A DNA stretch of 61,995 bases, filler included, from Kipferlia bialata (taxonomy: Eukaryota), in NCBI GenBank assembly GCA_003568945.1. It is 5 parts of 5 records of this genome, joined end to end, with 100 filler letters (N's around TTAATTAATTAA, not from the genome) between each part and the next. Parts side by side here need not be neighbours in the genome. Positions count along the whole stretch, not along the records: positions 14,388 to 28,650 come from BDIP01000842.1; positions 28,751 to 38,772 come from BDIP01000843.1; positions 38,873 to 53,090 come from BDIP01000844.1; positions 53,191 to 61,995 come from BDIP01000845.1; 1 more part is not named here. One strand, given 5' to 3'. The notes beneath the pieces were generated by a model. That model worked only from the letters and a program-made list of their open reading frames with translations. It searched no databases and was not told the DNA's origin. The position numbers and the translations under genes are program-made. Below, piece after piece: positions 14,458 to 55,410 of the stretch. Every line of letters begins with the position of its first letter. Position 1 is the stretch's first letter.

Positions 14458-17400
14458 GACGAGGCCATTGCCTGGGTAGCTGAGTCAGAGTGGAGCCGCA
14501 TGGGTGACCTCTGTGAGGACCCGTGTCTCTTTGATGACTCAATCAGCCCAGAGGACATCAACCAGGTGTGTATGTATAATTATATATGTATATATACACT
14601 GTGATCAAAGGACATCAGCCGATGTGTATACAGATATATATATATATATATAGTGGTCAGTCAATACCTCCCTGGTAGTATGTCTGTCATGGCTCGTAAT
14701 CTCTCTCTCTCTCCCTCTCTCTGCCCCCCCCCCCACACACACACACCCAGGGCGGCATTGGTAACTGCTGGATGTGTGGCCAGGTGTCAGGGCTGGCCAC
14801 CCAGAACGGCAGACACGTCAGGTGGGGGGTATACATATATACTATTATATATAGTGTTTACCGGTATCGTCACTCACTCCAGGGGAGCCATCTACCCCCC
14901 TCACATCAACCCCTCTGGCATCTATGGGGTGAGGGTCTTCAGGAGAGGCAAGGTATGGGGAGTGTAGTGTATATATCCGAAGGAGATGAGAGAGTAGAGT
15001 CCCCCTTCATATCCCCCAGTGGTATCAGTCTGTGCATATGTATCACTTACCCCCAGGTACATGATCATTGGATATATTCATATGTCTATATATTTATATA
15101 TATACAGTGGTGTCAGTATCTATCTATGTATCTATTCTACCCCCAGTGGTACATGATCATTGTAGATGACCACATCCCCTGCCAGGGTCAGAGTGTCACA
15201 TCGGTCAAGTCCAAGAACAGGAATGAGTGGTGGGGGTACGCGGTATCTGTATATGGACATCCAAATAGCAATATGCACTTATCCCATTTTGTCTCTGATG
15301 TCCTCACCTATCCCATTGTCTATTCCCATTCATGTCTATGTATGTATCTCCTCTGACCCCATGTCCCTCCTGGAGAAGGCCCTGGCCAAGGTCTCTGGGT
15401 CCTACCAGGACCTCAGCGCTGGGATGGGTATCGGGTTGGAGCCGGTACAGGTGTTCACAGGTTAGGATAGTTGGGTAGGAGGCAGTGGTATACCCCATCT
15501 GTCCATTTACCATCTGTCTCTCACTGTCTAGGCTGTAACCTGTACATACACTGTTCCAACGATGCTGAGAACATATGGACATGGCTCAAGAGGTAGGGTA
15601 TATATGGAGTATGGGTATATATACTTATAGATATATATGGACATGACGCAAGGGGCAGGGCATGCTTAATGTATGGGTATATGCATTTATAGATAGCTAA
15701 ATATGCATGTGCGTATACATGTGACCCCAGGCTGTTCGATGCGGGTGTCATTGTGTCTGCTGGGACACAGGATGCCCAGACAGAGCAGACAGGCCTGGTG
15801 CAGGGACATGCCTACACAGTGCTGGGGGTGTACGAGAACACCGACCTCGACCTCAGGTGGGTGTTTCATACACATATCACATCTGCGCTCTTTGGACATT
15901 GACACCCCTCCCCTCACCCCCCAGGCTCGTGAAGATGAGGAACACTTGGGGGGCAGGAGGAGAGGTATGGGTATCTCATAGAGCGCCGAACACCCATTAT
16001 CCAGTCTCTACACCTATATATACTTATATGGACATACCTTCTCACCCCCAGTGGAAGGGTGACTTCAGTGACTCATGTCCCATGTGGCAGCAGTTCCCAC
16101 AGCTCGTAGAGGAGACAGGTGGGAGGGAGTAACTGTACTAGGACTTAGGTTGACCAGTCATCATAACCTATATAAATATATAGTTCCTACCCTAACCCAG
16201 GTGTCGAGCTGCACAGGGGTGACTCCGATGGCATATTCTACATGCCAGTAGAGGCATTCACCACACACTTCAAGGTGTGTATATACATGTGTGTCTGAGT
16301 GAGACAGAACTACTACTTGGTGTATGTGTGTATACATTTGATGAGTTACAAATACCAACCCCCCAGGGCTTCCGTGCCTTCCCGACCTGTGCGTGGCCCC
16401 CAGCTGGGGAGGACATACCCGCCTCCCTGACCAAGCCCATGCCCCAGGACTACTGCTACAGCAACGACTACAAGATACACACGGGCACAGAAGGTGGGGG
16501 TAAATGGGTATATTCTTCAAACACCATGGGAGTTAACCTGGTATATATTCGTGTGCATGTATACCCCCTCCCCTGTTCCCTACCCCTCAGGCTATGAGGT
16601 GACCACCTCCGTCGCTGTCCCCGTACCTGGTCCGAGACCTGGCCAGAAGACCACTGTGTACCACGCCTACAACCAGCCGCAGTACATGTTTGATGTCACA
16701 AAGGAGCAGGACATCAGAATCAGGGTGCAGGGTGAGAAGGGCAGCGAGGGGGGGTATCCCTCTCTCCACATTGTGCAGGTGCCAAATGATGGGTCGGCAC
16801 TCACATACAGGTACGTGTATATGTATATATAGTGTATCGCTTTGGTATGTCCTGACCCTCAGGGCCATGCGCCGTATGGATCTGGTTGATAGGGGCGAGA
16901 CTGACGGCTCCTCGAGTGTGCCCCACCACATCGGGTACTCCATGCTGACCAGCTGGATGGAGCGGCACCTGTCCATAGGCAGGTATGTCCTGGCACTGAG
17001 GCAGGGCAAGACAGACGGGTCGGCACTCACGTTGCAGGTATGTGCTGGGATGTTAATATACACGTTATATAGGTGATATACATATGTGACTACCCCCCCT
17101 TACCCCCAGTGCAAGGCCGCCACCTCGCTCTCCTTCGTCCCCCTCCCCTCTGGGTCCATGGCATGCTGTGCGGCACAGACTAAGGGAGGGGAAGTGGGGG
17201 GGTTCGCCAACCCCCAGTACTCCTTTGTAGTTGATGGGCAGGAGACGCAGAAGGTAAGTATTGGGAGACATCTTCGTATATAGTGGCTTCCCATTGTCAC
17301 GCTGACCCAGATCACAGTCGACCTCGAGTTCCCCTCTGCCGTGTATGGGGACGGGGGCGACTGCGGCTTCTACCTGGTCAAGAGACCCACCCACAAGAGA

Positions 17401-17601
17401 CTGGAGGACGCACCCGAGGGGGACGGGTTCTTTGAGGATGCCCAGGCGGACATGCCTGGGTATGTGAAGGGGGTGTGGGACCTCGAGCCTGGCATCTACG
17501 TCATAGTGCCCTGGAGGACGGAGGGGAAGGCGGAGTCCTACACGATCACAGTCGGGACATCAGCTGCTACTCTCAGCACCAAGGTGTACGGGCTGGGATA
17601 G
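14458..17601 (+). CDS. Calpain-family cysteine protease (CysPc + tandem calpain domain III-like regions), 5' truncated
   Basis: Spliced motifs DINQGGIGNCW, IVDDHIP, LLEKALAKVSGSY, GLVQGHAYTV, LVKMRNTWG, WKGDFSD; C-terminal NQPQY and GGFANPQY...LEPGIYVIVP; stop at 17599-17601. Confidence 0.93.
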
Positions 17602-17869
17602 AGTGATACCTGGGGACCGAGGGGATAGTCAGTGAGGGGCTCTGAATGGCTGTGTATGATATGAGTGAGTCGCGAGATTAGAAATGACTCCTTGTAGAGT
17701 AGAGCAAGAGTAACTGTATGATTATGTATTGGTGGCTAGAACTATTAACGGGTACAAGTAATTGATTCATGGAGAGTATGCAGTTCAGTCACAGGTTGCT
17801 GAAATGTCTCCATTGATCTATTCTGATTCTTATTCTGATTCTACACGACTTCACACACTATACCCCCTC

Positions 17870-19474
17870 TCACTCCCCCTCCACCCTGAATATGGCTGCC
17901 TTGACCGTCTGTATCATGGCCCCTGTGTTATGATACCGCACACTCTGGTGCTCAATGCCTGGTGTGGGGTGGGGTGGGGGTGATGGTGAGTGTGACACAG
18001 TACAATGGAGGAGACCAACGGTACTCTCATTCAACCACTATATATATACCCCTACCTGAGAACGCCACGTGTGTGTGTCCAAAGTACACGTCTGTTATGG
18101 CGCCAAAGTCACATGCCGCAGGGTGGGCCTCGGAGTGCAGGGAGAGGCGGGTCCCCATCCTCTTGGAGACCCTCCTGTTGGGCCAGATGACACGGACCTG
18201 GGGGTGGGGTATGCGGCACTTATGCGGCAATGGTGTACTTCTCTTCATAATAGAAGTCTATATATATACATAGAGAGACAGAGAGACTGAGTCCCGTACC
18301 GCTGGTAGCACTCTAACAGATACCAGTGCCTGGTAACCGAGGGAGGCTAGCCTACCCTTGACCTGATGGGTAGAGAGAGAGAGAGGGTGGGGAAGAGACA
18401 CTGTATGCTAACCCTGCCCACCTTGATGTCTGAGTCTGGCTTCAACTGGCGCTTGAAGGAGTGGGACCCCCTCTTCCTGCATGGTTAGAGGACTCACTCA
18501 CACCCATATAAATAGAGAGCCATCTGTGATTGACTGACACGCTAGTCCAACCCCCTCGGCATTCCCTACCTGCTGAGTGGCAGGTCCCCATGGACAAAGA
18601 GGGCTGTGCCTATAACCACATGGGTGCTATGCCAGTGGAAGTTGGGCACAGCGCCCTGGACAGTGAGGGGAGGAGAAAGCGGAGCGAAGAACGAAATGTA
18701 TCCTCATTCTTACTTATACTGAAGTGTGCATATGTGGGTGTGTTTGATACCCCCCACCTCGAGTGTGGCCAGCTTGGCTGCAAAGCCCTCCACTCCATCG
18801 TGGTTGCCCAGCACATAGTGGAACTGGGGTGGGTGGGGATACGGTACAATAGAGAGAACAGTCATTGCTACACATAATGACACTATACCATATCAAGCAT
18901 ACTGTCATGTCCATATGTACATTCATATAGTAAAAAACTCCTAATGTACCTGACAGTGTGCGTGTGCCTCACATAGCTCAGTCAGCCATGCAACTGCAGA
19001 CTCCATGGTGATCTGAGGGGTGAGAAATATACAATAGTAGAGAAGAGACATAGATAGCGTACACAGAGAATGACATAGGAAGGGGAGGGGAGAGAGAGAG
19101 AGTCACCACACCTCTAAGGATGCCTGGGCCCACTTGAAGTCGAATATGTCTCCGTTGAGGACAAAGAAGGCAGACCGGGCAGCATGTCTAGGTGAGAAAG
19201 AGAGAGGCATATACAGTATTGGAACATAGAGAGAGCAACACAGGAAGACAAGACCTTCTCTTGTCTCTAAGAACAATCCTGGTGTAGATGGGGAATACAC
19301 ATACATATACATTTACATATGCATGTATTCACTGGTCATGCACCTGTGTATGGCCCGGGTGTGCTCTGGGAGGGATGACCGCTGGGCAAACATGTGGATG
19401 TCAGAGATCACAGCCCCTCCCGTGGGAGCTTTCCGTTCGCCACCTTGATCCTCATCCTGCAGGGTCTCTTGCAT
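17870..19474 (-). CDS. Calcineurin-like metallophosphoesterase, LpxH/YbbF-like; about 9 exons
   Basis: All five motifs in order across exons: ISDIH, LNGDIFDF, YVLGNHD, FVHGD, VYFGHTH, then YHNTG. Confidence 0.88.
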
Positions 19475-19623
19475 ACCCTGACAGGAAGAAACAGTTGTCA
19501 AAATGATACTCAGCCCAACTAAAAACTTTCGGTCTGAGGCAACAAAAGGGTTGACACGTTATCACCGACCGAAAGAGCAAGCTCTCTATACCTCTTGTAC
19601 CACTTCCTGAGGGCCACACCGTC

Positions 19624-19981
19624 ATGCGTCACCTGTTACTGTTCTTCATCGCAGTATCTGCTCTGGCCCTATGTGTCCGGGGTGCCCCCTCCCCCCTCTC
19701 TGGGGGTGCTGTGTCCACTATGACCATGCAGGATAACCTGGGGGAGTACGTGACTGGGTCATCATGATTGTCTCCCCATCTTAGTACCCCCACTCCCTAC
19801 CCATTTCTCATCAAGGTCGAATTCTTGTCACACTTTCTTCTCCATTATCATTCAATAATAATTAGTTTCTTTCTCTCTCCTACCTTCTCTCGTTTATGCA
19901 GCCCACATACTCTTCTTGACATAAGGATCATTGATACTTAGGTCATAGAAACAGTACAAATGTATGCTGTCTCCCTTCTTA

Positions 19982-20063
<82 letters not shown>

Positions 20064-22033
20064 ATTTGCTTCAGTATGTTCCCTTTACCATGATTGAATG
20101 CATCCTTGCATTTCTCACCCTTCAGATGGGATACCCTATTGTGCTGCCCAAGGATGGGGGCGCCCTATGATTATATTACATTACATTGTATTATACTCAT
20201 ATACTGATTTCTTACATATTAACTATATATTATGGAATACATCCTTCCTTATCTCACCCCCAGATGGGATACCCTATTGTGCTGCCCAAGGATGGGGGCA
20301 CCCTATGATTCTATATTACAATGTATTATACTCATATACTGATTTCTTACATAATAATTATATATGATGGAATATACCCTTCCTTATCTCATCCTTCAGA
20401 TGGGATACCCTATAGTGATGCCTAAGGATGGGGGCACCCTCCGCATAGGGGCCTTGGTCAGTGTGATCGGGGGTAAGTATAGTACATACAGTGTACTTCA
20501 TTAATACCTTCGTATACGTGACAACTATCTCCTAGTTATATATATGAGATAGATAGATATATGTATGTGTCCTCCGGATAGGGGCAGTGGTCAGTGTGGT
20601 CGTGGGTATATATATTCTATATATACGATAATTGGCTTTCTATCTATATATCTGGTTAAGAAGTTATACCAGTTGTTGATTTATACACATCACTCCGTAT
20701 AGGGGCAGTGGTCAGTGTGGTAGGGGGGGGGGGGTTCTATATATGCATTAGAGTACTAAATACTATTAATAAATATTTAGTTGTGAGGGTATAACAGGTA
20801 TTGAATTATACACCTTGATCCGGAGAGGAGCCATAGTCAGTGTTGTCGTTGGTATGTAATTCATTAGTGCATAACACAGTTGTATATATATAGTTGCAAG
20901 AGGAGGTTGGGATGGAACGTATGGGCAATAGTCTTCTTTTTCTACATGAAATAGGTTTGATTCTTAAACAATAGTGAATTGTACATATTGCTCTAAGCAG
21001 TGTAGATCTATACTTATGCGTCACATCATTGTGCTACATATTCTATGCATCAGATAATGTCTCATGTGTGAGGCTACACTGGATACGATATGGGGGTATC
21101 AGTATCAGTATCCAATGTACGGTATATACTACTATGTATGCTATATATATACTATATACTACTATATATACTATATATATATACTATACATACATAATTT
21201 ATATATAAGTATATATATGTACTATATATATACTATAAATTGTAGTATCTCATGTATCAGGTTATACTGGATACGACATGGGAGAGCTGGTTGGGGCAGA
21301 CATGGCTCAACAGGGCTATGTATTGGTCAAGGTATCCTTATATATAGAATTATAACTACATATATATATATATATATATATACTGACTCTGTCTTGGTCA
21401 AGGTATCCTTCAACACACACATATATACATAGAAGTATGACTATATATTTTGTATATGGTATATATAGGTATGTATGTGTATATATAACATGTATATAGA
21501 ATATATTGACTACACCTCAGTGCTTCCTCTACAAACACAGTTCAATTTCGAGAAGACGCTCTCTCATCACAAGTGGGATACACATGAAATTTTATTAGTA
21601 TTGTTTCAAGACGATTGACTCTCATTCCTAGTGGGATCACAACGGTTCCACATCGGGTATGAATGCCACCGAGCTAGAGTATGTCTACCCTCTGACAGAG
21701 GAGACAGCCTGGATGGAGGAAGAGGAGAGAGGAAGACTAGAGAGAGAGAGGCAGAATCAGTTGGCCGCTGAGTGGAAGAACCAGGAGAAAGAGAGGAGGA
21801 GTGAGGAGGTTGCTAAGTGGGAGAGAGAGGAGAGAGAGAGACGGGCTAAGGGGGTTGCTGAGTGGGAGAGAGAGGAGAGAGAGAGACGGATTGATGAGAT
21901 TGCTCAATGGGAGAGAGCGGAGAGAGAGAGACGGGCTAAGGTGGTTGCTAAGTGGGAGAGAGAGGAGAGAGAGAGACGGGATAAGGTGGTTGCTGAGTGG
22001 GACAGAGAGGACCGGGATGGACACAAGCATTAG
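19624..22033 (+). CDS. Predicted secreted protein with C-terminal 14-aa Trp/Glu/Arg repeats
   Basis: Exon 1 MRHLLLFFIAVSALALCVRG (signal-peptide-like); internal exons MGYPIVMPKDGGTLRIGALVSVIG, GYTGYDMGELVGADMAQQGYVLVK; last exon with VAKWEREERERR repeats. Joins between exon 1 and 20400 unresolved. Confidence 0.6.
21790..22015 (+). repeat. Coding 42-nt tandem repeat (about 5 units)
   Basis: Units such as gttgctaagtgggagagagaggagagagagagacgg encoding (V/I)A(K/E/Q)WEREERERRxxx. Confidence 0.85.
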
Positions 22034-22989
22034 CATGTGAGACTCAAATGAGTGCTGTTTCATGTACTGTGCTGCGGTGAAAACGGTTGATTAGCCTGAG
22101 CCTACTAGAGAAGCATAGTGCATGTGTATGTAATAGAGCGGCCCTTAAAGGTAGGCTCGTCTTCGGAGTATTGTTGTGATTATAGAGATGACTATAGAAT
22201 AGTGATATTCATTAGTGTTTCCTCATTATTACAGGCTCAATGGTCGATCTCACGAATTCACTTCTCACGGACAACGTTGAATATCGTACGTTACTGTCGC
22301 CAGAGGTTCTATGTTGTATGTGGGTATGGAATATGCCTTACAGATGGTATCATAATGATGTGCCAGAAACTCAATATTGGGCTCCACTGTGGACTCCATG
22401 AGGAGACTTGTCATACTGGCGCGGACGCGTCACCCCTAGTCTGGACAGAATAGTCATACAATACACTATAGTGCGGCGTCTGCGAAGGGAGCGCTCTCAG
22501 TGCCCCGATCTCTGGTCCTACTTCCTGAGTGAGATACTCTGATACCCACCCTCTCCCTTCTGTCTATGTCCCAATGTAGAAGGCGCCCCCACCCCATCTC
22601 CCCATTGGGGTAGAGCAAGGCGTCGTTGATTTTTTGATTTATATTTTGTGTTATTTTGTGGAGAGAGAGCAGGTGTAGTATCTCCTATCCTCTTGGCGTC
22701 TTTCTCTCTCTCTGTGTGTGTCTCAGGCTGAGACTCTTTTCAGTGTGTGTTGTGGGGAGAGACGGCGCTTAAACCCCAGCATGGATCTGTAATCGATTGT
22801 CGCAGACTGGTTCCAAGGTCTCTCCAGGGGCATACACCAAGCAATTGAGGAATATTATTATGTATTAGTATATACTATATTGTTCGATATTCAGCGTTTG
22901 AGTTGAACTGACATGATGGTGACACACTATTACAAGAGACATACCTCCACGGCGTCTCAGAGACTTTTGCCAAATCCCCACTGATGGTG

Positions 22990-23660
22990 TCATAGATCCA
23001 AACACACCCAGTGGTAAAGACAACTAGAATCCGACCAAATCCCTGTTGTTTGCTTGCAGTTATTCATATTGTCAAGAGAGTATTCTAGTTGATAATCATT
23101 TGGTCGGATATCAACTAAACCATATAATGTGCGTTGCTGTGGTTCTCTTAAGTTCAGAGTCTTAACAATACCTGTATATATCCCTGTCACTTGACCCAAC
23201 TGTGGGGGAGGTGTCGGTTTCTCCAGCCAACCCTGATCAGGGGTGTATGTGTGGTGCTTGGACGCCATGCAGAATGCATGCATGACTCCATACACGACCG
23301 CGCACACAGAGATGTGCGGTGCTTGTCGAGGGTCGAGGTTGAGGGTGCCCTTATCGATGTCGTGGAGGTAGTTTGCACCTCCATTGAACCCAAAGTGATG
23401 ACCCACAAGACTGTCCGAAAGCACACATGATACTCCATAGTCAGATAGATATCTACGCGACATCCCACATACGTACTCGTGGATACTGTCACCCATAGAG
23501 TGTGTAAACTGAGCCGTTGAAGGCTCATACATTAACACAAAGCGTTCTTCAGTAGCAATGTCGAACTCATGCAGACATAGAACCTGGTCTCTTCTCTCAG
23601 TGCTAAAAGCCAACACCTTCCCCCCCACATTGACAAGAGAGAGCCTTCCACTCAGACCGA
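22990..23660 (-). pseudogene. Degenerate beta-propeller/Kelch-like ORF, possibly a pseudogene
   Basis: 212-aa ORF without ATG start; SLVNVGGKVLAF and CAVVYGVMHAF...HHTYTPDQGW resemble Kelch-like blades; no clean upstream exon. Confidence 0.3.
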
Positions 23661-24317
23661 TGTCTTTATGTTCATTTGTTCTATTTCATTCTATTTTATT
23701 CTATTCTACTCTATTATCTTTATCTTTATCTCTATCTTTACCAGACTGCACACAGAATGTGATACAACTGCGCCATGGCTGTTCAGACATAGTGGGAAGT
23801 AGTACGAGGTTTCAGGGTGGTCTCTGTTGCACATGCCGTTACACACCAGCAGGCATGACTGTGAACCAGTGGTAACCATTTGAACAGGAAATACCTTACC
23901 GAGACCTTGGCAAGGTATGCTGACGTCCTGCACAGTAATGGCATCAATCAGGTGTGTGTGTGCCTCATCGTAGGAGTAAACGCTATCCCTGTCTCCATTG
24001 TTTGAAACAACTTTCGCCAAAACGCCAATTAATCTAGTGTAGTATCATATATACTATTAGACATATTATATATGATAAATACCAGTGTCTCAAACTGGTA
24101 TCTCAAGTGAGGGACTTTGTGGTGCCAAGGTGCAGACAGACACATCTCTATACTCTAACCAATCTATTCTGTTCCCATCTCTTTAGACTCCAGATTAGAC
24201 AGGTATCTCCAATGTAGGGAACAGGATTGTCCTTGTTGGCCCAAGGGTGCAGACAGACAGACAGAAGTATGATACTTCTATTACTCTTCTTCATCATCTA
24301 TTCTCTGTTAACTCCCT

Positions 24318-24504
24318 TCAGACCGGAATCTCCAACGTGGGAAAGAGGATTGTCTTTGTAGTCCCAAGGGGTGCAGAGAGACTCCTGGTGCTACGCTTCA
24401 TTCTGAAAGGGGTGTAGAGAGAGACCAGCCACTCGCCCTGGCCAGAGACTAGGGAGGAGCCTAAGTGTAAGGGAAAGAATGTATCTATCTATCTATACAT
24501 ATAA

Positions 24505-24541
<37 letters not shown>

Positions 24542-27500
24542 CCAGCCACTCGCCCTGGCCAGAGACTAGGGAGGAACCTAAGTGTCAGATAACAATATTT
24601 CTTATTATAAGTCTTATAATAAGAGGAACCTGCATGTGAGGCTATTAATGCATATATACAGGAGAGAGAGAAAGATGGAGAGAGAGAAAGATACTGGTAC
24701 CTGGGGATGGGGGCCTTGATATGAGTATCTTGTCGATGTACGGGGCCAGCTCTCTGTCTGAGCGCAGTTCCTGGGGGATAAGAGGTCGAACTAGATGAAG
24801 TACAATGAATAGAATACCGTAGCATTGAATCTAATTACGTGATAATACTATGCACAAATACGTGTGCAATGAACACCCTGATACCTGCAGTGCATGTTCC
24901 ACGTTGTGTCCAGCGGCAAGACGTGCAGTAAGGAGTCTGAGGGTAAGATGAGAAGACATATATATAGATGGGAATTGAGAAGATATTGAACATAATATGT
25001 ACAAGACGGCAGAAGTGTGAGGTTGAAAGGGAAAGAGAGTGTCTTGTATTGATATTGGCCTTATCCACCCATATCAACCAATATTGTCTTATCCATACCT
25101 CACAACCAGGTGCCTCTCGTCTATTGGGCATGTGATGGACCGGCCCTTGGACATCTTGAGGGCCCTGGCAGGTTAGATATATATATACTTTTTTGCATGT
25201 ACCCTATATGTACTAATATATGCAGTTATACTATATGTCAGATGGACCGGCCCTTCGACATGTTCAAGGCCAAGGAGGAACATTATATAAATATAGAATA
25301 CATATAACTAATATAACTACATATAACTAATATAACTACCTGCTCAATAGTGTTGCCGCCGAGCTGTAGTGCCCATCTCTGTATGCAGCCATGCCCCCAG
25401 CCACGTTGGACACAGACTCTAATCTATGGTAAGAGAGGGTAACGTATATATATATATATATATATATATGCATATGTACATATAGTAGATATATAGTTAG
25501 CCATGCCCCCAGCCACGTTGGACACAGACTCCAGCCTAAAGGGTAAGCGTATTGAAGAATACCTTCAACATTGATTCCTTTAGAGTGAATATACACGTAT
25601 ATCTATATATACCTGGTTACGTCCTTGAATGGCACCCTAGCCCCCTTGAGAGTGTTGCACACCCTGACCATGCCATGACAGAGGGAGTCATAACTACCTG
25701 AAGATTAATATGTATATACATATTTGTGTGTAAATGCAATATGTAGAAAACATACGTAGAGAGGTGTATGAATGTAGACCATGGCCATGAGTAATATGGA
25801 ATCACAGCTGCTTCAAGAATAGTGTGTATATGAAATAGTATATATTCTTCTTTATATACGTATACATATCTGTACAACGTTAGTGTATTACGAGGTTCAA
25901 TACCTTGCTTCTCCTTGACAAATGTGTCCAGCCCACCCATCCCGTTGAAGATGGCTGTGCAGTGCAGGTCGACCAGGGAGGCAGCACGATCTGGGAGGTT
26001 GCCTAATGGTCAGGAATGTATGTGTACATACATTGCGGACTATTTAGGACTATGTATTTTTGTAGAAAAAATGGCTGTGCAGTACATGTCAACCAGAGAC
26101 GCAGCTCTGTCGGGGAGATTCCCTGACAGCAAATATCCGTTACATGTGAGAGTAATGGTAGACAAAACATCCTTGTATATATCATTCACCTTGGGCACTC
26201 ATATATATATATATATATATCACCCACCTAGCAGTAGCTCCAGGCACTTGGACTGCACTGCATCGGAGTCCTGGGGTTAGAGGGTCAATGATACAACGAT
26301 TATTCACAAAACTTTCAGTAGTATATATAGACAGATATGTAAATATATAAATATATACATAAATATACTTGGACTGCACAGCATCGGAGTCCTGGGGGTG
26401 AGTGGGTTCAGACGAAGTAGAAAGGATGCGAATACTGTTTCAATGTAAAATACTACATTACATTATCATAATATTGACTCTTTGACTATTGGTCCGTTGT
26501 CTCAAGGGGGTATATAGGGAATCCTAATATCATGAATGTCCTCATTCACCCTTGCAGCACTGTCTGCTTCCATGTCTGTATAATCAATCTCTCTCTCTCT
26601 CTCAATAAATATATGCTAACCTTAATATCATGAATGCCCTCGTTTGTCCTTGCAGCACTGTCTGCTGCCATGTCTGTATAATAATCTCTCTCTCTCTAAA
26701 CATATATAATTTCTCATTCATACCTTAATGTCGTGAATGCCCTCATTTACTCTAGCAGCACTGTCCGCTGCCATGTCTGTATAATCTCTCTCTCTCTATA
26801 TATATATACAAATATATATATATCTGTGTGTGTGTGTGTGTGTGTGCTAACCTTAATGTCGTGTATCCCCTCGTTTGTCCTTGTCGCACTGTCTGCTGCC
26901 ATGTCTTTTATATAATATTCTCTCTCTCTCTCTCTATATATATAGTATTAATATATATACATATATACCTTAATGTCGTGGATCCCTTCATTCTCTCTGG
27001 TAGCACTGTCTGCCGACATGTCTGTATAATAATCTCTCTCTCTCTCTCTCTCTAAATATATATTAATATATGTGTGTGTGTGTGCGCTAACCTTAATGTC
27101 GTGTATCCCCTCATTGACCCTTGCAGCACTGTCCGCTGCCATGTCTGTATAATAATCTCTATCTCTCCCTCTCTCTATATATATACCTTAATATCATGTA
27201 TCCCCTCGTTTGTCCTTGCCGCACTGTCTGCTGCCATGTCTGTGTAGTGGGACAGAGATGGTAGTCTAGCCACCATCAGAATGTCGTCAATGTCCTAGGG
27301 TTAATGATAATATAACTACAAATGATATATGGATCAATACCTGTCTCTCCGTGATTGTGTGTCTGCTACACACACCCATGGTGGCAGTCTCTCTCTCTCT
27401 CTCTCTCTCTAGGTATATATATATCTGTGTATATATATATACATACCTGTCTCTCCGTGATTGTGTGTCTACTGCACACTCCCATTGTGGCAGCTCTGAT

Positions 27501-27982
27501 ATCCGGGTAGGGAGGGGGGATGGAGCCCAGACGGTCAAACCTAAGAGTGAGGGTACAGCAACACCTACAATACATCTTCATATATACTGTACTAACACAT
27601 AATAATGTATATACATACCTGGCCAGAGGGTACCGCGTCTGGAGGGATGCCAGGATGGATAGACCGATCCTGGGGGTAAGAGACTAAGTCTGAGATGGTT
27701 CCAGAAGACTCGAGAAAATAGAAAGATCCAATATACTATCTAAAGTAATACAAACAATTGGACGATGTCAGGATGGATATGCCGATCCTGGGTGTGAAAT
27801 CATAATGTATCCAACATATATAGTGTACCTCCGCAGGTGGATATATATATATATATGTGTGTATATGTATAAATACCTAGGCATGTTGAGGTGTGTGCAC
27901 ATCTCAGAGGCAGCGAGACCGGCCATCAGACCAGCCGTGATGTTCCTATAGTTAGAATAGGATATATATATATATATATATA

Positions 27983-28031
<49 letters not shown>

Positions 28032-28563
28032 AGCCAGACCGGCCATCAGACCAGCCGTGATGTTCCTGGAATGAGACCATTGAGGCATACAAACAATAAT
28101 ACCCTAGAGAGGATAATGCGAAAGCTCCCATCGGACTAGTATAGATATTACCTCTTGTCCCTAATGTTTGTCCTGTGCGTATCTGCCGCATTCATAGTCA
28201 GTTGCACAGTCAGCAGTGCCAGCATGGTCTCCCCTGAGACAAGGAGGGCCTCAACGGCAGAGGGGATGTCCTGACGTTACATATATATATAGAGAGAGAG
28301 GGAGTGCCAGCATGGTCTCCCCTGACACTAGCAGGGCCTCGACTGCAGATGGAATATGCTGACGTTATATATATATATATACGCGTGTATATATATATAT
28401 ATATAGAGGGAGTGCCAGCATGGTCTCCCCTGAGACAAGGAGGGCCTCAACGGCTGAGGGGATGTCCTATTGTAAATAAGTAACATTGAATAATGTGGAA
28501 TGATATATGACATGCTATGGGATATTCAGACACTAGCAGGGCCTCAACGGCTGATGGTGTATC
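24318..28563 (-). CDS. WDR17-like protein, C-terminal helical region (5' truncated by scaffold end)
   Basis: About 11 exons join in frame: SAVEALLVSGETMLAL...DIDDILMVARLPSLSHY...CLELLLGNLPDRAASL...GGMAAYRDGHYSSAATLL...ITCPIDERHL...SAPLGTTKTILFPTLEIPV*. Resembles my recollection of the WDR17 C-terminus; no search run. Confidence 0.55.
26523..27239 (-). repeat. Array of seven ~53-nt copies of an exon 3' half (one intact exon, six intronic echoes)
   Basis: Copies at about 27187-27239, 27092-27144, 26969-27021, 26852-26904, 26724-26776, 26621-26673 and 26523-26575, separated by (TA)n/(GA)n/(CA)n tracts. Confidence 0.92.
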
Positions 28564-28650
28564 CTAGAAAGTGAGAAAGAATGGTATAAAGACAGAGAAA
28601 TAGGAGGCGGGGGGGGGGGGGGGGGGGGGGGGGAAAAGGGGGGGCCAAAC

Positions 28651-28750: not shown

Positions 28751-28757
28751 GCGGGGG

Positions 28758-28796
<39 letters not shown>

Positions 28797-28804
28797 GGCA
28801 GTAC

Positions 28805-42892: not shown

Positions 42893-43010
42893 TTGCGTAT
42901 TTAGGTAGTGTCTGGCCACCAATAGTGTTATGACTAGCCATATTTGAGTTTTGATATTTTGGTCTTGTTTCCAAAAATAGTAGACTTACACATCAGCTAT
43001 ATTCGCCACG

Positions 43011-46000
43011 TTGCTGGTTCTGGCATCTGCTACGACCCCAACATACGAGCTTCGGAAGAAGGAAACTGATCAGGCTGATGTGGTTGGTGTCAGCAACACC
43101 CTGTGGAATCTTGTGGACACCTCAACCGATGAGGATGTTGTTGTGATCCCTGCAGGTATTGTTGGGCACGATTCAGACTACGAGGTCCGCGCCGTTGGCA
43201 GCCTTGGTGACTACAGTATTCGCCTCAATGTTGAGGCAGGTAACGTGATGCCTGAGGAGGGAGAGGCCTTAACAACCGGTTACATCCCCAACCTGGTCTA
43301 TCCTGACGAGAGCATGGGACACAAGATCACGTTCCTTCTTGACGATGACACTGAAGTTACCGTTGGTGTGTGGACTGTGTTTGACATTGACGTGACCAAG
43401 TCTGAGATTTCCTTTGATGGGGAGAACATTCTGGATGGGACATCCCCTGTACTCTCCCTCGTCTCCGGAAGCATCTACACCCTGAAGGTTGCTCTCAACA
43501 ACCACAATGGCGACAACTTGCTTCCCATTCCCCTCATGACCACCTGGGGCCTGTCATCCCTCGTTGAGTCATTCATCTCTATGTTGTCTGGATCCGACGA
43601 GAGCGCTGCCGAGATCACCCTTCCCGATATGGACGCTGTCCTTGAGGCCATTCAGGCCAAGATTGATGAGAGCGGAGCCACTTACGGTGTCAACAATCCC
43701 TCCTACGACTTCTGTTCCCTGGTTGATGGGGCCTACGTTTGCTCCGAGGACACCTCTGCCCTCGAGGACGTCATGGACGACTTCGACTATGACTTCCCCT
43801 TCACAATGGAGATTGGCATGGAGACTGACGACGACGGCAATTCCTCGGGTGGCTTGAAGCTCCCCCAGATCGAGTTTGAGGGCGCCCTCGCCGTGTCTTT
43901 CGAGGTCCAGCTCATGGGAGACATGGAGGGCTACTTCAAGGGAAGCTTTGAGTACTTTGACTACACAACCTTGTCCTGGAAGGATACTGAGGGAGACGCC
44001 AACCTTGTTGCTCTCGAGGGCCTTTGGATCGAGGACATTGCCGACGAGGTGCCATCCATGACCGGTGCCATGCTCGATCTCTGTGACGACGACATGTGCG
44101 TGACCGTCACCTTTGACAAGGACATATCCGTGCCTTCCTCCGGCGATGACTCTTCCTCATTTGGCTGTGATGATGTGTTTGCCTCCAGTGATGGGTTCTC
44201 GATCCCAGGGTGGACGTGCTCTGTGTTGGACTCCAACAAGCTCGTAGCTACCATTCCTGAGGTGTTCCTTACCCCTACCCTGCTGGACGGCGGTGTCGTC
44301 AGCTTGAAGGAGGATGCTGTTGTGGGTAGCTACGCTATGGTTGACCGCTCCGACAGTGCCTCTGGGACTATCGAGGTGAACACTGCTGCCGTTCCCACCA
44401 CTGAATCAGTTACCCTGCAGTTTGCAACCGGCTTCACCACCGCCCCCGGAGTAACAGTGACAGAGTGGAGTATCCCGACCACCATGTGTGGGGCAGTGGC
44501 TGCCGAGTTTGGACTCTCCAACATGAACGGAGTGTCTCCTCTCTCTGTGGAGATTGTTGCCATCAAGACCGGTGATGCCGATAGTGATGGTACCGTCATT
44601 GGCTCTTCTGTGTCTGGCACATCTGTTGTGGCATCTTTTTGGGAGGGCTCCTTTGATCCTCGCACCATCGACAACACCTACTCTCTCAAGGTTAGGGTCG
44701 AGACTGTGATGGGCGTTGGTTACTCCGCCGCTGGTACCGTTGAGTGGGACTCCTCAGACCTCGCTGGTCTGTCTTACGCCAAGAGCATCTCCCGAGGCAA
44801 GACCCAGTCTGCCAAGTCCTTTGCCCTTCCCAACGTCAGCAGCCTCTTTGTGTGCCAGAGCACCAAGGTTGTTGGGTTCTCTTCCGATGATGACCTACCT
44901 TTGGGATTCAGCCTCACTGGAGAGGATCTCTTCCTCACCGTTAACCCAACCCGTGCTGCAGCCGGTGATCACGTGGTCGTGCTCACAGCCACCATTGTGC
45001 CCGATGTCGTAGACCCTGTCGACGACCTCCCCTCATACGAGGTGGACTTCACCTACAACGTGACCATCGTTGATACTGAGAGTGACGGCGTGTCATTCCT
45101 AGGAGAGATTGATGGCAATGACACTGATGGGTATCTGCCCTCTGACGGCATGGTGTTCACCCTCAACAACCTGAGCCCCGCTGACGCCGCTGTCAAGTGG
45201 GAGGTGAAGAATGGCAGTGAGACCATCAAGACTCAGGACTCTGCCGACGCCACGGATGCCGCTGGGGCCACTTTCGACAAGGCTCTGCTCAAGTGGACCT
45301 ACGATGAGCTGGTGCTGACCTCTCTGACCGACATCTCCGTCACCGCCACGCTCACTGACGCAACAGACTCTACCGAGACTCAGGTCATTGAGTACGACAC
45401 CGATGGGATGGTTGTCATGGCCGTCACTCTCTCTGACTTTACCGCTGAACTTGTGGACGCCTCCATCACCTCCGATGAGTCCTTTGATGTCAAGATGGAC
45501 TTCTCCATCGCTGCCGGTGAGGAGGACTTCTTCTTCGGCGACGCCTCCTCTGCCCTCGAGACTGTCTGGTTTGTGGACATGGCATTCGGCGATGTCGTTG
45601 TGACGTCCGAGGCCCTCTCCCCCTTTGACCTCCTGGTTGAAGGCGACTACGTGTACTCTATGGACGTCCCTATGTGTGGCGCCGACGAGGTGACCGCTGA
45701 GGTTTCCCTTCTTGTCCTCACTGGTGGTGTGGTTGTTTACGATACGGAGGCTGCTGCCGCTGCCTCATTCGCCTTCACCATCCCCTGCCCCACTGTGGAC
45801 ACCGATGACCTCGAGGATGTGTCACTTGAGACCCTTGCCCTTGTGGTCAGGGCTGATTCCGTCAGTGCTGAGGATACAGCCAGCGTACTTGACGCTGGTG
45901 TTGACCTCATGGCTGATGCTCAGGCAGGAGGCACTCTCGACCGTGCAACTGTGTCTGCCTTTTCAGGCATGATTGCTGAGGGAGACGCCGAGTCTCTCCC

Positions 46001-46874
46001 CGACACTGAGGCTATGGAGTCCTTCACTGACATTGTCTCCACCATGTACGACGACATCGACGAGGACGTCCAGGTGTCTGTCGAGGAGGCCGAATCGGTG
46101 CTTCTTGCCGTCACTCAGGCCGCTAGCGAGGGTCTGGTTTCTGCAGAGAAGGCCCAGGTTGCTGTCCTCTCTGTGGCCAAGGCCTTCCTCCAGTCCCGGG
46201 CCTGTGACCCCGATGTTGATATGTCCACTGAGTCGGGAAGCTTCACCACAAAGGCCTCCTTCGTCACCCCTAGCAACTCTGAGATGGAGATTGGAGGTGT
46301 CACCGTCACTCTCCCCGCCTCCTTCTTCGAGGACCTTGAGCTCGGGTGCGTGCCTGCAGTTGGGGACTCCACCGTCCCTGAGTCTGATAGCTCGTCCATC
46401 GCTCTGGCCAAGGACACCAGTGACGCCAGCGATGTCATTGCTATTACCAGCCAGGGCGGCATGTCTGTGGCCTCTAACACCATCAGTGCCCTCTCCACTC
46501 TCAAGGACGCAGTGACGGTGGCTCTTCCCTTTATCGATGGAGCATCCACCTCTGAGTCAGAGACCGACACCACTCGCACATCTATCAAGTGCATGACCCA
46601 GAACTCTTCAACTCTGCTGTGGTCCGCCTCCGGGTGTACTACTGTGGTCGGTACCGATGGTGTAGAGTGTTCCTGTGACAGCCTCGGTCGTTACGGTGCC
46701 TTTATGGTGACATCTGTTATCCAGCTGGTGCCTTCCCTTCCTCTGTTGGGTTTCACTGGTTATGCAGTGCTGGTTGCTGTTGTTGTGTTTGCTCTGGTTG
46801 GCATGTGTTGCTCATACTCTTGTATTAAGAAGGCCCACACCAGGGTGAACAAGAAGCCAGCTGGAAAGGTTTGA
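43011..46874 (+). CDS. Large acidic type I membrane protein with GAIN/GPS motif and one TM helix (N-terminus probably in gap)
   Basis: 1287-aa uninterrupted ORF; KCMTQNSSTLLWSASGCTTVVGTDGVECSCDSLGRYGAF, then hydrophobic YAVLVAVVVFALVGMCC and a short basic tail. Confidence 0.8.
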   Translation: MLVLASATTPTYELRKKETDQADVVGVSNTLWNLVDTSTDEDVVVIPAGIVGHDSDYEVRAVGSLGDYSIRLNVEAGNVMPEEGEALTTGYIPNLVYPDESMGHKITFLLDDDTEVTVGVWTVFDIDVTKSEISFDGENILDGTSPVLSLVSGSIYTLKVALNNHNGDNLLPIPLMTTWGLSSLVESFISMLSGSDESAAEITLPDMDAVLEAIQAKIDESGATYGVNNPSYDFCSLVDGAYVCSEDTSALEDVMDDFDYDFPFTMEIGMETDDDGNSSGGLKLPQIEFEGALAVSFEVQLMGDMEGYFKGSFEYFDYTTLSWKDTEGDANLVALEGLWIEDIADEVPSMTGAMLDLCDDDMCVTVTFDKDISVPSSGDDSSSFGCDDVFASSDGFSIPGWTCSVLDSNKLVATIPEVFLTPTLLDGGVVSLKEDAVVGSYAMVDRSDSASGTIEVNTAAVPTTESVTLQFATGFTTAPGVTVTEWSIPTTMCGAVAAEFGLSNMNGVSPLSVEIVAIKTGDADSDGTVIGSSVSGTSVVASFWEGSFDPRTIDNTYSLKVRVETVMGVGYSAAGTVEWDSSDLAGLSYAKSISRGKTQSAKSFALPNVSSLFVCQSTKVVGFSSDDDLPLGFSLTGEDLFLTVNPTRAAAGDHVVVLTATIVPDVVDPVDDLPSYEVDFTYNVTIVDTESDGVSFLGEIDGNDTDGYLPSDGMVFTLNNLSPADAAVKWEVKNGSETIKTQDSADATDAAGATFDKALLKWTYDELVLTSLTDISVTATLTDATDSTETQVIEYDTDGMVVMAVTLSDFTAELVDASITSDESFDVKMDFSIAAGEEDFFFGDASSALETVWFVDMAFGDVVVTSEALSPFDLLVEGDYVYSMDVPMCGADEVTAEVSLLVLTGGVVVYDTEAAAAASFAFTIPCPTVDTDDLEDVSLETLALVVRADSVSAEDTASVLDAGVDLMADAQAGGTLDRATVSAFSGMIAEGDAESLPDTEAMESFTDIVSTMYDDIDEDVQVSVEEAESVLLAVTQAASEGLVSAEKAQVAVLSVAKAFLQSRACDPDVDMSTESGSFTTKASFVTPSNSEMEIGGVTVTLPASFFEDLELGCVPAVGDSTVPESDSSSIALAKDTSDASDVIAITSQGGMSVASNTISALSTLKDAVTVALPFIDGASTSESETDTTRTSIKCMTQNSSTLLWSASGCTTVVGTDGVECSCDSLGRYGAFMVTSVIQLVPSLPLLGFTGYAVLVAVVVFALVGMCCSYSCIKKAHTRVNKKPAGKV

Positions 46875-47705
46875 ACACACTCTCTACTAGTGTGATATTG
46901 CGTTTTCTGACTTGTAAGTGTCACTAAATTGTTTGGATGGAATTAGAGTGTGCTGTCAGGCTGGGGTACTACTACAGTATCTATATGCCTGTAGCTTGGA
47001 AAGACGATATACCAATTTCTCCTCTTGGCATCGTGATAAGTATGGAGACACCGTATATAGTGGTGATTCATGAGTGGTTGTATTCCGACCTCATATATAC
47101 TAATGAATGAGGTTTTCTAATGTTCACATTGACACAAAAGCACAAAGTGATACACCATTTACACTCTGCCATGCTCACAAGTAAGAAGCAAAGTTTGAGA
47201 CTTTTAGCTTAGCTCTAATGCCTACCTACGCTTTGTTACTAGTAGCGATGATTTTCGTCTATTATACGACATAAGACAACGATATGACTCCTAAACAAAA
47301 ACGCTAAGAGACGCCACACCCTTAATTGTAACCGGTGTTTATAATGGGTATAAACAACCACCAAACATAGATTCTTCTAAACAACCACCAAGAGCAACCT
47401 GATTGTGGAGAGGAAGTGGTCTGATACTTGACAAGCCTCGCCAATAGGCCCTTAGGGGCCTACAAGCAACGCCCCATTAATACGCCAATATCTATATATA
47501 ACGCATAAGGGGCTAGGCTTGATAGCCGCCAAAAACAAAGATTTCTCACCCTATTGTCAATATCGTACTAAAAACTGCGAGAGTATATTTTCTTTTTCTG
47601 ATTGGAAAGGGTTCAGTGTCAGAAACAAAAAAAAAAAAAAGTACATCAACCAGACTGGTGACTCTACCAGTGCCTATTTCATCGTGGGAGGCTCCGTGCT
47701 CCTTA

Positions 47706-50276: not shown

Positions 50277-51359
50277 GAGAGGGTCCAGTATGATAGTGAT
50301 ATGAGTCAATGGTGGAAATCCCATGAAGTCATAATATATATATGAAGTCATATATATGTGTGTATAAATCCCATTCAGACGGGTCCAGGCTAGATGTCAT
50401 GCGCTGTCTGCTTCTTTGGTTTCTACCGAGGCATTGATCGCGATACCGTGTTAGTCGGAGTCATGCGAGCAGAGGCTGTGGTGAAGACTTCATCGATGGT
50501 TACGAGGGATGTGTGCCAGACGTGACATGACTTGAATTAGCAGTCGCTCGGTTTCCCTTTACAAATCAAGTGTTCACTTTAGAGACCATTGGACAGGAGT
50601 CCCTGGGGGATGCAGAGACTGGGTTGTACTGCCTGTTTCAGCTGACTCTGGATACTCTAGTAGTGTGAAACACATTGTGATGGATATTCTAAGGGTTCGT
50701 GTCAGCAGTGTTCAAATTTTTGGTTACTGTGGCCAAATAGTTTTGAGCCCAATTTGCGCCCAAAGGTACGCCAAAAATAGCATTTGTATACGATACGATA
50801 TAGAGTTAATATCATGATATAGTTAACACTAATGCAGAGGCTGTGTTGGCCAGGGGATCAAGAATCGAGTCCATTTTCGAAAATGTGGTAGACGTACCCA
50901 ATAGATCTATTACCAAGACTATGCTAGGTACAAACACTCCTAAAGAGAGCAGAGTTCGTCTTCTTCGTCCCTAGGCATACTCATATTGGAATAAGAGCGA
51001 GTTATAATTATCTATTTAATGATACTGATTTAATGATACTGATTGTCATATATATAATAGTCATAAATATTAGTATTCTGAAAATGCAAGATTTTTGGTA
51101 GATATATATAGATAAGACTTGATGTAAATGGGTGACTCATAGTGCACATGTTTCTTTGGCAAACTGATATATATGTCAATGGCCAAGAACACCGAGACTG
51201 ACTACCTTTCTGTGAGATCCTGTTATGCAAACCCGAATGGTATGTATGACGCCATTATGTCTTGCTGTCAGACTCTCTGAATACGTGGACTTGACAATAC
51301 TAGTGTATACTGTGACCTCGATGACCTGAAGAGGTGGACACTAATTCACTAATACAGGG

Positions 51360-51780
51360 GTGGATATTAGTGTTCCCTTCACCGTGTCTCTTGACGCTGA
51401 GATCCTGAGGCCAGTAGTTGATGCACAATGGAGGCTGGTGTACATGTTTGACATGGCCCAAACTAGGCTTGAAGTTTCCCTCGCAGACTGTGCTGTTGGC
51501 AATATTCCATGCGGACCTGTCTCTGTCAACCTTGACTGTCGGTATGGAATGGCCAATTTGCTGATTAATTATAATAATGATTATGATCTATGATTGTACT
51601 GATTCCAGTATCGATCCTAGTGGGATTGAGAGAAAGGTTTTACTCAACTGCGGTCTTCTTAGCGTAAAGCTGTTCTCTGGGGAGGTGGAAGTGGCTTGTG
51701 TGAACCTCGTTAACGAGGTTCAGAAGAGGAAGAATGAGAATGGGACCCGTGTTTATGTTAGAACCACTTGGGGTGTGTGA
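51360..51780 (+). CDS. Small protein with ASF1-like beta-sandwich pattern (5' exon unresolved)
   Basis: PFTVSLDAEILRPVVDAQWRLVY...VGNIPCG...IDPSGIERKVLLNCGLLSVKL...EVACVNLV parallels the ASF1 strand order; intron about 51542-51609. Confidence 0.45.
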
Positions 51781-53042
51781 ATTCTCTTCTCTGACTTCAC
51801 ACATACGACTGCCGAAGAAGCCGAGAAAGCACTAATGCACTTTTAAGGATACTTCTTCGCATTGTTCACACATATGTGCATGCTCAAAATTCTAGTCCAC
51901 GAATTAGGTTTTGACTTGTAGTTCAAGAGTGCTATATTGTCCTAGATCTAATAGGCTCTTGTAGATGTGTGTTGTTGGGTGTGTGCTGGGTATTTGCTGA
52001 CCATCGGTGCAAGGTTTTTGTATTCTCAGGTCTATTATGTCCCTGAGCCCTTTTGAATGAGTTGTATAGTGACTTTGACAGGGCCAGAAATGTGTGTATT
52101 AGAGTGTAGATTAGAGTGGGGAGAGGGAACACATGATTAATACCAAGAACCTTAAACTACCCACAGACATGCCAGTCAAACCATTCAGTCATTGTATTGA
52201 AACTATGTGTGATTCGTTAGCCCAAACTTTGGTACTAGGCGGCCTAGTAGCCTAGAACCTTGAAATACATATACACCCTTCCCATAGCTATGGATAGGTT
52301 GATCTATTAGTGTTTCCCGCTATCCATTCTTTGTACTAGTAGTGTCCTCCTACTACGGGTCGATGTCGAACGTCAATTATTGGCCGTCAATTTCTATTTT
52401 GACTGTCACGTGAGTTTTTGCCCACACCCTTTTTCACTTACTTTCTACTCGTAGCTATATACCCCAATGACCTTTTTCGCGAAAAGTGCGTATTATTCCG
52501 TACTAGGTGGGTCACTCGGCGACTAAAATCTATAGTGGGTCCCGAAGTCATAAAAATGGGGGCGTGTACCAAAAACAACATGCCTGACTAGTACCCCACG
52601 GTCTGTGGTAGTACTAGTGCCCCCGGGCGGGTAACAACAGTTGGTCCGGTGTAGCAACAGGAGGTTGCAATTGTAACTAGCATATAAGTATGATGACAGT
52701 GATTGACTGTGAAAAGTTTACTGGAGAGAATATATAAGCCTCACGGCCTATAGTATATAATCTATATACTAAACTAGTAATTCACTCGAAAGAAAATATA
52801 CTTATTAATAAAGAAAGTATACTTTATTAAGATATTATTATTTATTATTAAGATATTATTATTTATTTAATAGAGATAATACTATATATATTAGTAAATA
52901 TATACTCTTAATAATAATATGCTATTAAATATTAATAATAATATAGCTATTAACCTAATAAATAGTAATTGACTTCTAATAACTAAAAACTAATAACTAA
53001 TACTAGAATAACTAATAACTAATACTAGATATAGACTATCTC

Positions 53043-53090
<48 letters not shown>

Positions 53091-53190
53091 NNNNNNNNNN
53101 NNNNNNNNNNNNNNNNNNNNNNNNNNNNNNNNNNTTAATTAATTAANNNNNNNNNNNNNNNNNNNNNNNNNNNNNNNNNNNNNNNNNNNN
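53091..53190. other. Artificial scaffold linker
   Basis: N-run + TTAATTAATTAA + N-run. Confidence 0.97.
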
Positions 53191-53321
53191 TTCCCTTCTT
53201 ATATGGGTTTCCCCCCCCCCCCCCCCCTCGGTTCTCGTCTTCCCTCTCTTTCTCACCTGTGCCTACTATAACAATATCACTCTTGTATACCCACACCACC
53301 CATCTCACTCTCTCATCCTAG

Positions 53322-54268
53322 GAGTTCACCAGGACCAAGTCCCATGTGGGTCTAAAGCCAGGTTAGTGTTAGTATGTGTCTAGTTGTGTCCGTATATACG
53401 TCTGTGTATATATATCTGACAGATACCTATCCCTTCACCACTCCACTACTTCTTCACCGGTGTCTCTGATTGCATTGATTAGTGTGCATACTGAGTATAT
53501 TGTGATGTCTCTGACTTCAGGCCAGTACACGCTGTCCTACAAGCTCCGCCACACCCAGTCCTCTGGTTCCTCCTCCACCCTCAACAAGAGCAGGACATCC
53601 ACCACCAGACCCACCACCCTGCGGCGACTGGACGGGAGCATCCCCTTCAGACACGTCTTCACAGCCGAGGTGGACGTACCAGGCAGCGCACTCCCCGACA
53701 TCCAGGTCCTGATCTCCCCCTTCTCCTCCACCTCTCTCTCGCGGCCTGAGCCTGTGTGTGAGGGCCTGATATCCCTCGGGGGGTGCCATCTGGATGGTGT
53801 GATGAAGTGGGACGTGCACACATCGATGGAGAGCGAGGGCAGGGCGGTGGGGTCGGTGCATGTGGAGGTGGGCATCACGGAGACAGTCACTGACTCACCG
53901 GAGGCAGGGTTCATGGCACTGGGGGGGTCCTTCCAGGACCTGAATGCCAACCCATACTCTGTGGGGCTCGAGACCATAAGCCGCAGCCGGAGTACAGGTA
54001 GGGTGTCTCTTTCCTCTCTCTCACATCCCCCCTTCCCTCCCCACACACACACATCGCATTCTTTCTCTGACTAGCTATACACCCACCCCCAGGCAACCTG
54101 TCCCAGCCGGACATGGACTCCTCGCTCCTCCGTGTCCCAGGTCCCCTGTTGAGACAGAGCACCCTGGGCAGGAACAGCCTGAGGCGGCAGAAGAGAAGGG
54201 GTGGGGTGCAGAGACTGGGGGACCTCTTTGCCAGCATGTCGGACCTGTCGGCATCGGACAGGTGGGTA

Positions 54269-54300
<32 letters not shown>

Positions 54301-55410
54301 GTATGATACAGATACGCACATATATATGTATATATGTATATCTCTTTGCCAGCATGTCGGACCTGTCGGCATCGGACAGGTATATACATACATTTATATT
54401 ATATATATATAATGTATATAGATATATGTTACTGATACACTATATATATATATGTGTGTATATATCTCTCTTTGCTAGCATGTCGGACCTGTCGGCATCG
54501 GACAGGTATATGTATAGTGTATATGTATATATATATATATGATACTGATACACACATATATATGTGTATATCTTTGCCAGCATGTCGGACCTGTCGGCAT
54601 CGGACAGGTATATGTATAATGTATATGTATATATATATATATGATACTGATACACATATATACATGTATATATGTATATCTCTTTGCCAGCATGTCAGAC
54701 AGGTTGGGGCATGTGTATTTATACATATGTGTGTGTGTGCGTCTGTGTTAATACTAGCTCCTGACCCCCCCCCCCCTCACCCCCCAGGTCAGACTGCGAG
54801 TCCGTGGTGTCCAATGCCCCCCAGTCTGTGACTGAAGAGATTAATGACATCGTGTCTGTGTTCAAGGATAGACGCAGTAGCACCTCCTCTGCCGCCGGGG
54901 AGGGGGGTATGGGCACCTCCCCCCCCAAGGAGGTCTATACACTGAACGACAGTACAGCCAGTGAGGACAGTGACTCTGACTATGAGCAGGCCATGAACTC
55001 TTGTCTGCCCTCCACGCAGAGGCGGGGGGGGAAGGCCTTGGGTCCAGCTGTGGCTCTGCCATACGGGGTGACTGCGGGGAGGGATAGGGATGTGTCCAGG
55101 CAGAGAGGGTCCGACAGAGACAGTGGGGGGTACTCCGTGGCTGCTCTATGTGCCTCCCTTCCCTCCCTCCCACCTGCATTCTTCCCAGACGGCTATCCTC
55201 TGGCTGCATATGCTGTTATCAAGCTCAACCAGACGGTGCCGGGGTCGGGCCAGTCTAGGTGAGGGGCTGCCCACTACATTCACTGTCTATATTCACTCTC
55301 TAATAGGAGTGCCACACTCTCACTATGCTCTCAAAAACACTTATCGACAGGTACTGGTCGTCTGTGCTCTCTGCCATGAGAAGCACCATCCTAGGAGACA
55401 CATCAGGTGG

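Follow-up and report, generated by a model that had tools for sequence, protein, structure and literature searches.

The window analysed here, a stretch of 61,995 nucleotides (nt), comprises five scaffolds of Kipferlia bialata (assembly GCA_003568945.1) with spacers between them. K. bialata is a free-living, intron-rich fornicate, with 124,912 introns (PMC5874029). We examined partial exon copies, here called echoes, that lie in the introns beside an intact, live exon; all echo counts are limited to the window. Echoes occur in a minus-strand gene at 24.3-28.3 kb (W), a plus-strand gene at 20.4-22.0 kb (S), a gene at 53.5-56.5 kb (D) and a gene labelled calpain. Gene W (24315..28270, minus strand) has 13 GT-AG exons, its 5' end is cut off by the scaffold end, and its frame stays open when the echoes are skipped. 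The W model contains the NCBI hypothetical protein KIPB_004087 (P0001; 345 amino acids, aa), and the last exon of W matches P0001.

A short-range self-scan of the window returned 64 matches, compared to 0, 0 and 0 in three block shuffles, and splice-site-anchored scans returned 41, 69, 70 and 40 overlapping matches where 1.8-3.4 were expected. Partial exon copies were thus present where the original prediction had placed them, and in the layout it described: upstream copies carry the acceptor and the 5' part of the exon, downstream copies the 3' part and the donor. AG or GT was intact in 24 of the 28 echoes that bear a splice site. The pattern had been called window-wide, but it is local. Echoes were concentrated at 20.1-28.6 kb of one scaffold; calpain holds a few more, there is a single array at 54.3 kb, and 0 of 212 exon sides carried an echo in five other predicted genes (111 exons). 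W introns were AT-richer than those of echo-free genes (GC content 0.36 vs 0.46-0.49) and had more dinucleotide runs (0.155 vs 0.01-0.08). The scored set consisted of 29 ungapped echoes; 5 further echoes that needed gaps, two of them in W, were excluded from the counts.

Echoes accompany 11 of the 13 exons of W and occupy 9 of its 12 introns, all on the minus strand. Exon 1 is preceded by three 5'-half echoes (28303-28358, 28411-28466 and 28529-28563), which fall into two silent haplotype classes alternating with the live exon. The upstream echo of exon 2 (28030..28065) is 36 nt long with 1 silent change, and its intron flank is unlike the live flank. Upstream echoes were also found at exons 3 (27764..27787), 6 (26367..26391), 7 (26068..26122; 8 silent and 3 non-silent changes), 9 (25499..25535), 10 (25241..25271; acceptor lost) and 13 (24533..24577; full codons unchanged, with the break at a CT run also present in the exon). 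The upstream echo of exon 8 (25777..25811), outside the counts, is decayed, with indels and a lost acceptor; by eye it differs by about 4 silent and 3 non-silent changes and 2 indels. Downstream echoes follow exon 4 (27341..27387; 4 of 4 changes silent), exon 5 (a mosaic array of six 3'-half copies, 26523..27151, with GT lost in the most distal) and the stop-bearing end of exon 13 (24195-24247, and a decayed copy at 24090-24134 outside the counts). Further candidates upstream of exons 11 and 13 (a second copy at the latter) and downstream of exons 2, 6 and 12 were dropped on comparison with shuffles.

Differences between echo and live exon in W were predominantly silent. The original prediction expected a dead duplicate to change at all codon positions, a null that is too weak: a dead copy next to a constrained live exon alone yields a ratio of non-synonymous to synonymous divergence (dN/dS) of ~0.5, and this was the null we used. 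The 18 ungapped W echoes gave a dS of 0.52, a dN of 0.043 and a ratio of 0.08 (bootstrap 0.05-0.13), with 81 of 107 differences silent where 44 were expected. When the nearest echo per exon side was taken, 41 of 53 differences were silent vs 23 expected (P=5e-7). Over all 29 echoes, differences at the three codon positions numbered 25/14/101 and dN/dS was 0.12. Plain tandem duplication across a splice site, in which constraint on the live exon alone creates the silent bias, is rejected for W by these counts and by simulation, unless the mutation rate of echoes is far below that of live exons. Among 5400 simulated plain duplicates, 0 matched the W silent fraction (maximum 0.64 vs 0.77 observed). 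Silent bias extended to comparisons of W echoes with each other, with a ratio of non-synonymous to synonymous differences (pN/pS) of 0.15 in the exon 5 array and 0.10 at exon 1, over pairs that are not independent. The live exon therefore cannot be the only source of these differences. On the assumption that constraint acted on both copies up to the death of the echo, no more than about 9% of all divergence between them would date from the dead period. Array members farthest from the live exon were more decayed (ratio 0.19 vs 0.08; 5 vs 12 echoes, significance not computed).

The intron flanks of W also departed from plain duplication, which predicts that they be homologous. For 2 of 17 W echoes, vs 8 of 11 elsewhere, the 40 intron bases past the echo splice site resembled the live flank more closely than the background from unrelated exons did, and W flanks were unrelated even with exon halves 97-100% identical. 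Similarity that ends at or near the splice site is expected if the copy came from a donor with unalignable introns. Taken as an account of W, plain duplication is therefore highly improbable; it suits the calpain echoes, the 54.3 kb array and most S echoes, which have homologous flanks and whose silent counts are described below.

Copies within W did not behave as a time series of one lineage. Distances from the live exon along the exon 5 array were 8, 14, 3, 11, 3 and 10 of 54 nt, and four gametes were present in 17 of 36 site pairs. Divergence among W echoes was overdispersed (chi-square 52.6, 17 degrees of freedom), as local resetting predicts. The nine single W echoes were spaced at 116 +/- 6 bp with echo lengths of 24-55 nt, and the median spacing of all 29 echoes was 118. 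Echo and spacer lengths were anticorrelated (r=-0.87), which follows arithmetically from a narrow unit length; the finding is the narrowness alone.

We give an even chance to the reading that the W half-exons are dead remnants, produced when the gene recombined repeatedly with working versions of itself that were deeply diverged and probably allelic. Three features, similarity bounded by splice sites, silent-only divergence and mosaicism, suggest in combination that the donors were functional versions of the gene, long diverged and with introns that cannot be aligned. In such a process, diverged versions would match in their exons only, and a break inside an exon would be repaired by copying from the other version. 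Copying would not stop at the splice site but enter the donor's intron, unrelated in sequence, and rejoining would take place without long homology. The new half-exon and its splice site would go live, and the old half with its own splice site would stay behind in the intron. Live halves and echoes could afterwards undergo unequal exchange and conversion, which would assemble the mosaic arrays and return some echoes almost to identity; old echoes would decay. One-sided replacement by diverged alleles had been proposed in the original prediction; the unrelated W flanks and mosaic copies support a diverged donor, and that the donors are alleles rather than paralogues we infer. Metamonads lack the end-joining proteins Ku70-Ku80 and DNA-PKcs and are considered to rely on homologous repair (PMC8516963), which makes exon-anchored homologous repair plausible.

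With the same one-sided capture, the donors might instead be paralogues or homeologues that lie, or once lay, at other sites in the genome; this is a possible but not a probable source. Paralogues would explain a dS of ~0.5 without extreme allelic diversity, the restriction to a single affected region and the two silent classes alternating at W exon 1. Yet at least 3 codon classes in the exon 5 array would call for several donors, and no second protein was found in the sets searched. P0001 had no homologue in Pfam, and the longer, shorter and 50%-representative protein sets returned P0001 itself or nothing. This search is weak for unannotated DNA; for proteins of 190-604 aa without the last exon, coverage came from the representative set alone. 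Among metagenome contigs, 104 pattern matches to P0001 were obtained and 0 were confirmed. The P0001 cluster has 1 member on 1 contig. A lack of donors among annotated proteins and metagenome contigs leans, weakly, to alleles absent from the assembly.

Several observations weigh against recombination with diverged alleles. The empty donor search is one of them, and alleles at dS ~0.5 would require extreme diversity, old balancing selection or introgression. The four-gamete patterns may stem from repeated mutation at saturated sites. Neither the narrow 116 bp unit nor the confinement to one region is explained by this reading. Echo breaks were said usually to abut (TA)n/(GA)n tracts; under a strict rule, 5 of 18 independent breaks did so vs 17% of intron windows (P=0.19), and microsatellites were not significantly enriched at the breaks. 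The five gapped echoes left out of the counts, two of them in W, are more decayed than those scored. A bolder form of allele capture, which we regard as rather unlikely, would be a property of this locus: the measured ~116 bp, half an exon and most of an intron, would be copied from foreign alleles into exon breaks, renewing splice sites and introns at each turn and leaving within the intron an ordered archive of past working alleles that could flow back into the live exon.

If selected today, echoes would be a nearby store of sequence for conversion of the live exon, or their halves would be joined at the RNA level; the low dN/dS, the 24 of 28 intact splice dinucleotides, the narrow unit length and the meeting of S2 upstream and downstream echoes at exon bases 39-41 are in keeping with this. 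However, variation is mostly silent, so conversion would alter the protein little, and distal echoes decay. In 13 of 14 cases, splicing canonically at a W echo site would disrupt the frame or introduce a stop. The sole exception is the exon 2 echo acceptor (28030-28065, minus strand), whose use would add 120 nt in frame with no stop.

Contigs of one sample, in a DNA set (X1) and a second set (X2), were compared over 20070-21120 alone, in gene S; X1 contigs fell in 8 of 30 bins and X2 contigs in 2 of 30, none on gene W. The contig records were filtered, so that empty bins and the lack of contigs of 80-99% identity there are no evidence. That X2 is RNA is a guess, though one of its contigs joins two exons. 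This RNA-type contig carries 32 letters of the live 3' end of exon S2 with 0 differences and continues into live exon S3. In doing so it passes over a 788-nt GT-AG intron and skips the four echoes in it: three downstream echoes, of which two keep an intact GT, and an upstream one whose acceptor is weak; no intact upstream acceptor was seen to be skipped. The X2 word share of 0.13 (live-exon share 0.136) was not used as evidence. Use of the exon halves in splicing, the alternative offered by the original prediction, is disfavoured by this contig and by the 13 of 14 disrupted frames, and selection on the echoes is on the whole unlikely.

Pieces of different haplotypes stitched in tandem by the assembler would produce just such a silent bias if the haplotypes were functional. 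The unit length is near the short-read scale, the draft is a short-read SPAdes assembly (PMC5874029), and the direct check covered one junction, in gene S. At that junction, the S2 echo break at 20304, an X1 contig reads across with 44 and 49 letters on either side, 0 differences and a depth of 354. X1 may be the window's own source, in which case bridging tests the assembler and not a second sample. X1 also held 0.96 of 935 sampled words from 19900-28600; break-spanning words make up 5.8% of the stretch, so this share is suggestive only. Exact repeats of 45 or 55 bases on which an assembly graph could loop are absent from the scaffold, simple ones aside, and echoes with stops, indels and lost splice sites would not come from working haplotypes. 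We consider an assembly artefact quite improbable. X1 contigs at 20070-20353 had depths of 121, 268 and 354, the lowest adjoining a long C run; these depths are without a baseline and are not copy numbers, and extra copies of the echo unit may be collapsed there.

Outside W, the echoes of calpain and D and most of those in S resemble ordinary tandem duplicates that span a splice site. Live exon S2 (20400..20472, plus strand) uses the donor seen in the RNA-type contig. Its two upstream echoes (20126-20166 and 20264-20304, plus strand) end at exon base 41 and have homologous intron flanks; its three downstream echoes (20571..20851, plus strand) begin at exon bases 39-41. Live exon S3 (21261-21331, plus strand) has an upstream echo at 21073-21094 and a downstream echo at 21387-21402. 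Silent changes in S echoes numbered 16.5 of 30 vs 12.8 expected (P=0.16), and in the nearest non-W echoes 7 of 14 vs 5.6 expected. The calpain echoes (14606-14629, 15017-15075 and 15635-15654, plus strand) resemble ordinary decayed tandem duplicates. The first is borderline: it needs gaps, and its score merely equals the shuffle maximum. In the single scored calpain echo, 2 of 2 changes were non-silent, one a stop. The D array (54342..54700, plus strand) consists of four near-identical copies of an exon 3' end, donor and intron start and appears to be a young tandem array; its three scored copies had 1 difference altogether, which was silent. The claim of overwhelmingly synonymous differences in four genes therefore held for W only, S, calpain and D failing to beat the null. 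Coding constraint until recently was likewise supported for W, over most of the separation of its copies, and the other three genes were unremarkable against the null.

Several known systems share features with W. One-sided invasion in double-strand break repair is reportedly known from repair assays (Belmaaza and Chartrand, 1994, are said to have described it) and has one homologous junction, which in W would lie inside the exon, and one non-homologous junction. In W the process is read from standing sequence, is repeated over 11 exons and has an unseen donor. Silent cassettes feed gene conversion at trypanosome variant surface glycoprotein (VSG) genes, Borrelia vls and chicken immunoglobulin pseudogenes. 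These cassettes, like W echoes, are non-expressed, mosaic partial copies with coding-like sequence; W differs in that variation is mostly silent, the copies lie inside introns and transfer to the live exon is only proposed. Mutually exclusive or tandem duplicated exons are whole exons with two splice sites that keep the frame, whereas W echoes are half-exons with one splice site whose use would mostly disrupt it. Under the Rogers model of intron gain by exonic tandem duplication, a new intron arises between the duplicates; W echoes lie within existing introns and are skipped by the open frame and the public protein. One class of protist loci likewise has exon/intron units that unequal crossing over has multiplied, but each of those units is a whole coding exon with a fixed phase, while the W units are half-exons outside the frame.

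Plain splice-site-spanning duplication shares with W a direct head-to-tail repeat that includes the splice site, and W fails two of its defining features, the duplicated intron flank and a dN/dS of at least ~0.5 (0.08 in W). Internal gene duplication across introns (Gao and Lynch 2009, cited in PMC4974935; PMC2891723) likewise gives short head-to-tail intragenic copies with a splice site. W differs from it by its unduplicated intron flank, its recently constrained-looking dead copies and the lack of a new intron. In human F7 intron 7 (PMC1557585), the first unit of a 37-bp variable number tandem repeat (VNTR) spans the exon-intron boundary, and splicing takes the donor farthest upstream, which is also the case at S2. 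The downstream F7 donors are silent, and S2 downstream echoes are likewise skipped in the one RNA-type contig. F7 pseudo-sites are described as identical in sequence, whereas silent sites are deeply diverged in W, where upstream acceptor echoes also occur. The near-identity of boundary VNTRs is seen at 54.3 kb; in the W exon 5 array, copies differ from the live exon at 3-14 of 54 nt. Internal duplication across a splice site, boundary VNTRs and one-sided repair are all known already. For the W pattern, strong in one gene, we found no description in the literature searched, with most subscription papers outside the coverage, and the terms 'duplicat', 'heterozyg', 'ploid' and 'clonal' had 0 occurrences in the main text of PMC5874029.

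If recombination with diverged alleles is correct, a single genome holds the record of a pool of working alleles, long diverged and not seen elsewhere. It would be rare evidence for recombination with diverged lineages in a free-living fornicate, and would offer a concrete route to replacement of introns and splice sites at an unchanged intron position in a group for which the absence of classical end joining has been reported. Gene W is also a natural test of a spliceosome that ignores intact decoy acceptors upstream of the true one.

Gene labels were assessed with profile and protein searches. The calpain label received weak support from one exon (PF00648, E=0.002, below the curated cut-off). 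The 'WDR17-like' and 'C2/DIL' labels found no support in the searches run; P0001 gave a single match among PDB sequences (E=6.6) and none to WDR17, with the C-terminal part of the gene alone in the window. A structure atlas search with P0001 gave weak helical or TPR-like leads at most, and its single-sequence fold model (mean predicted local distance difference test score, pLDDT, 40.8) was too poor for a structure search. The 'secreted' label for S was not established, its first exon not joining in frame.

Minor features were noted beside these genes. Two consecutive calpain exons, ending at 16787-16810 and 17014-17037 (plus strand), share the same short motif and donor (score 22 vs shuffle maximum 13); the second copy, which lies within the reading frame, is possibly an echo turned coding. 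The calpain junction at 15235-15360 (plus strand) has no clean acceptor in the manual model, and the automatic model set different boundaries. The putative end of S (21632-22033, plus strand) is a 133-codon open frame of 45-nt tandem repeats with Glu/Arg-rich units and no Pfam match. An intronless open frame of 231 codons lies between S and W (22990-23685, minus strand) and also has no Pfam match. Two long, nearly intronless stretches at ~43000-46870 and 57170-61550 (plus strand) are unusual for an intron-rich genome, and from their sequence they read like large secreted or membrane proteins.

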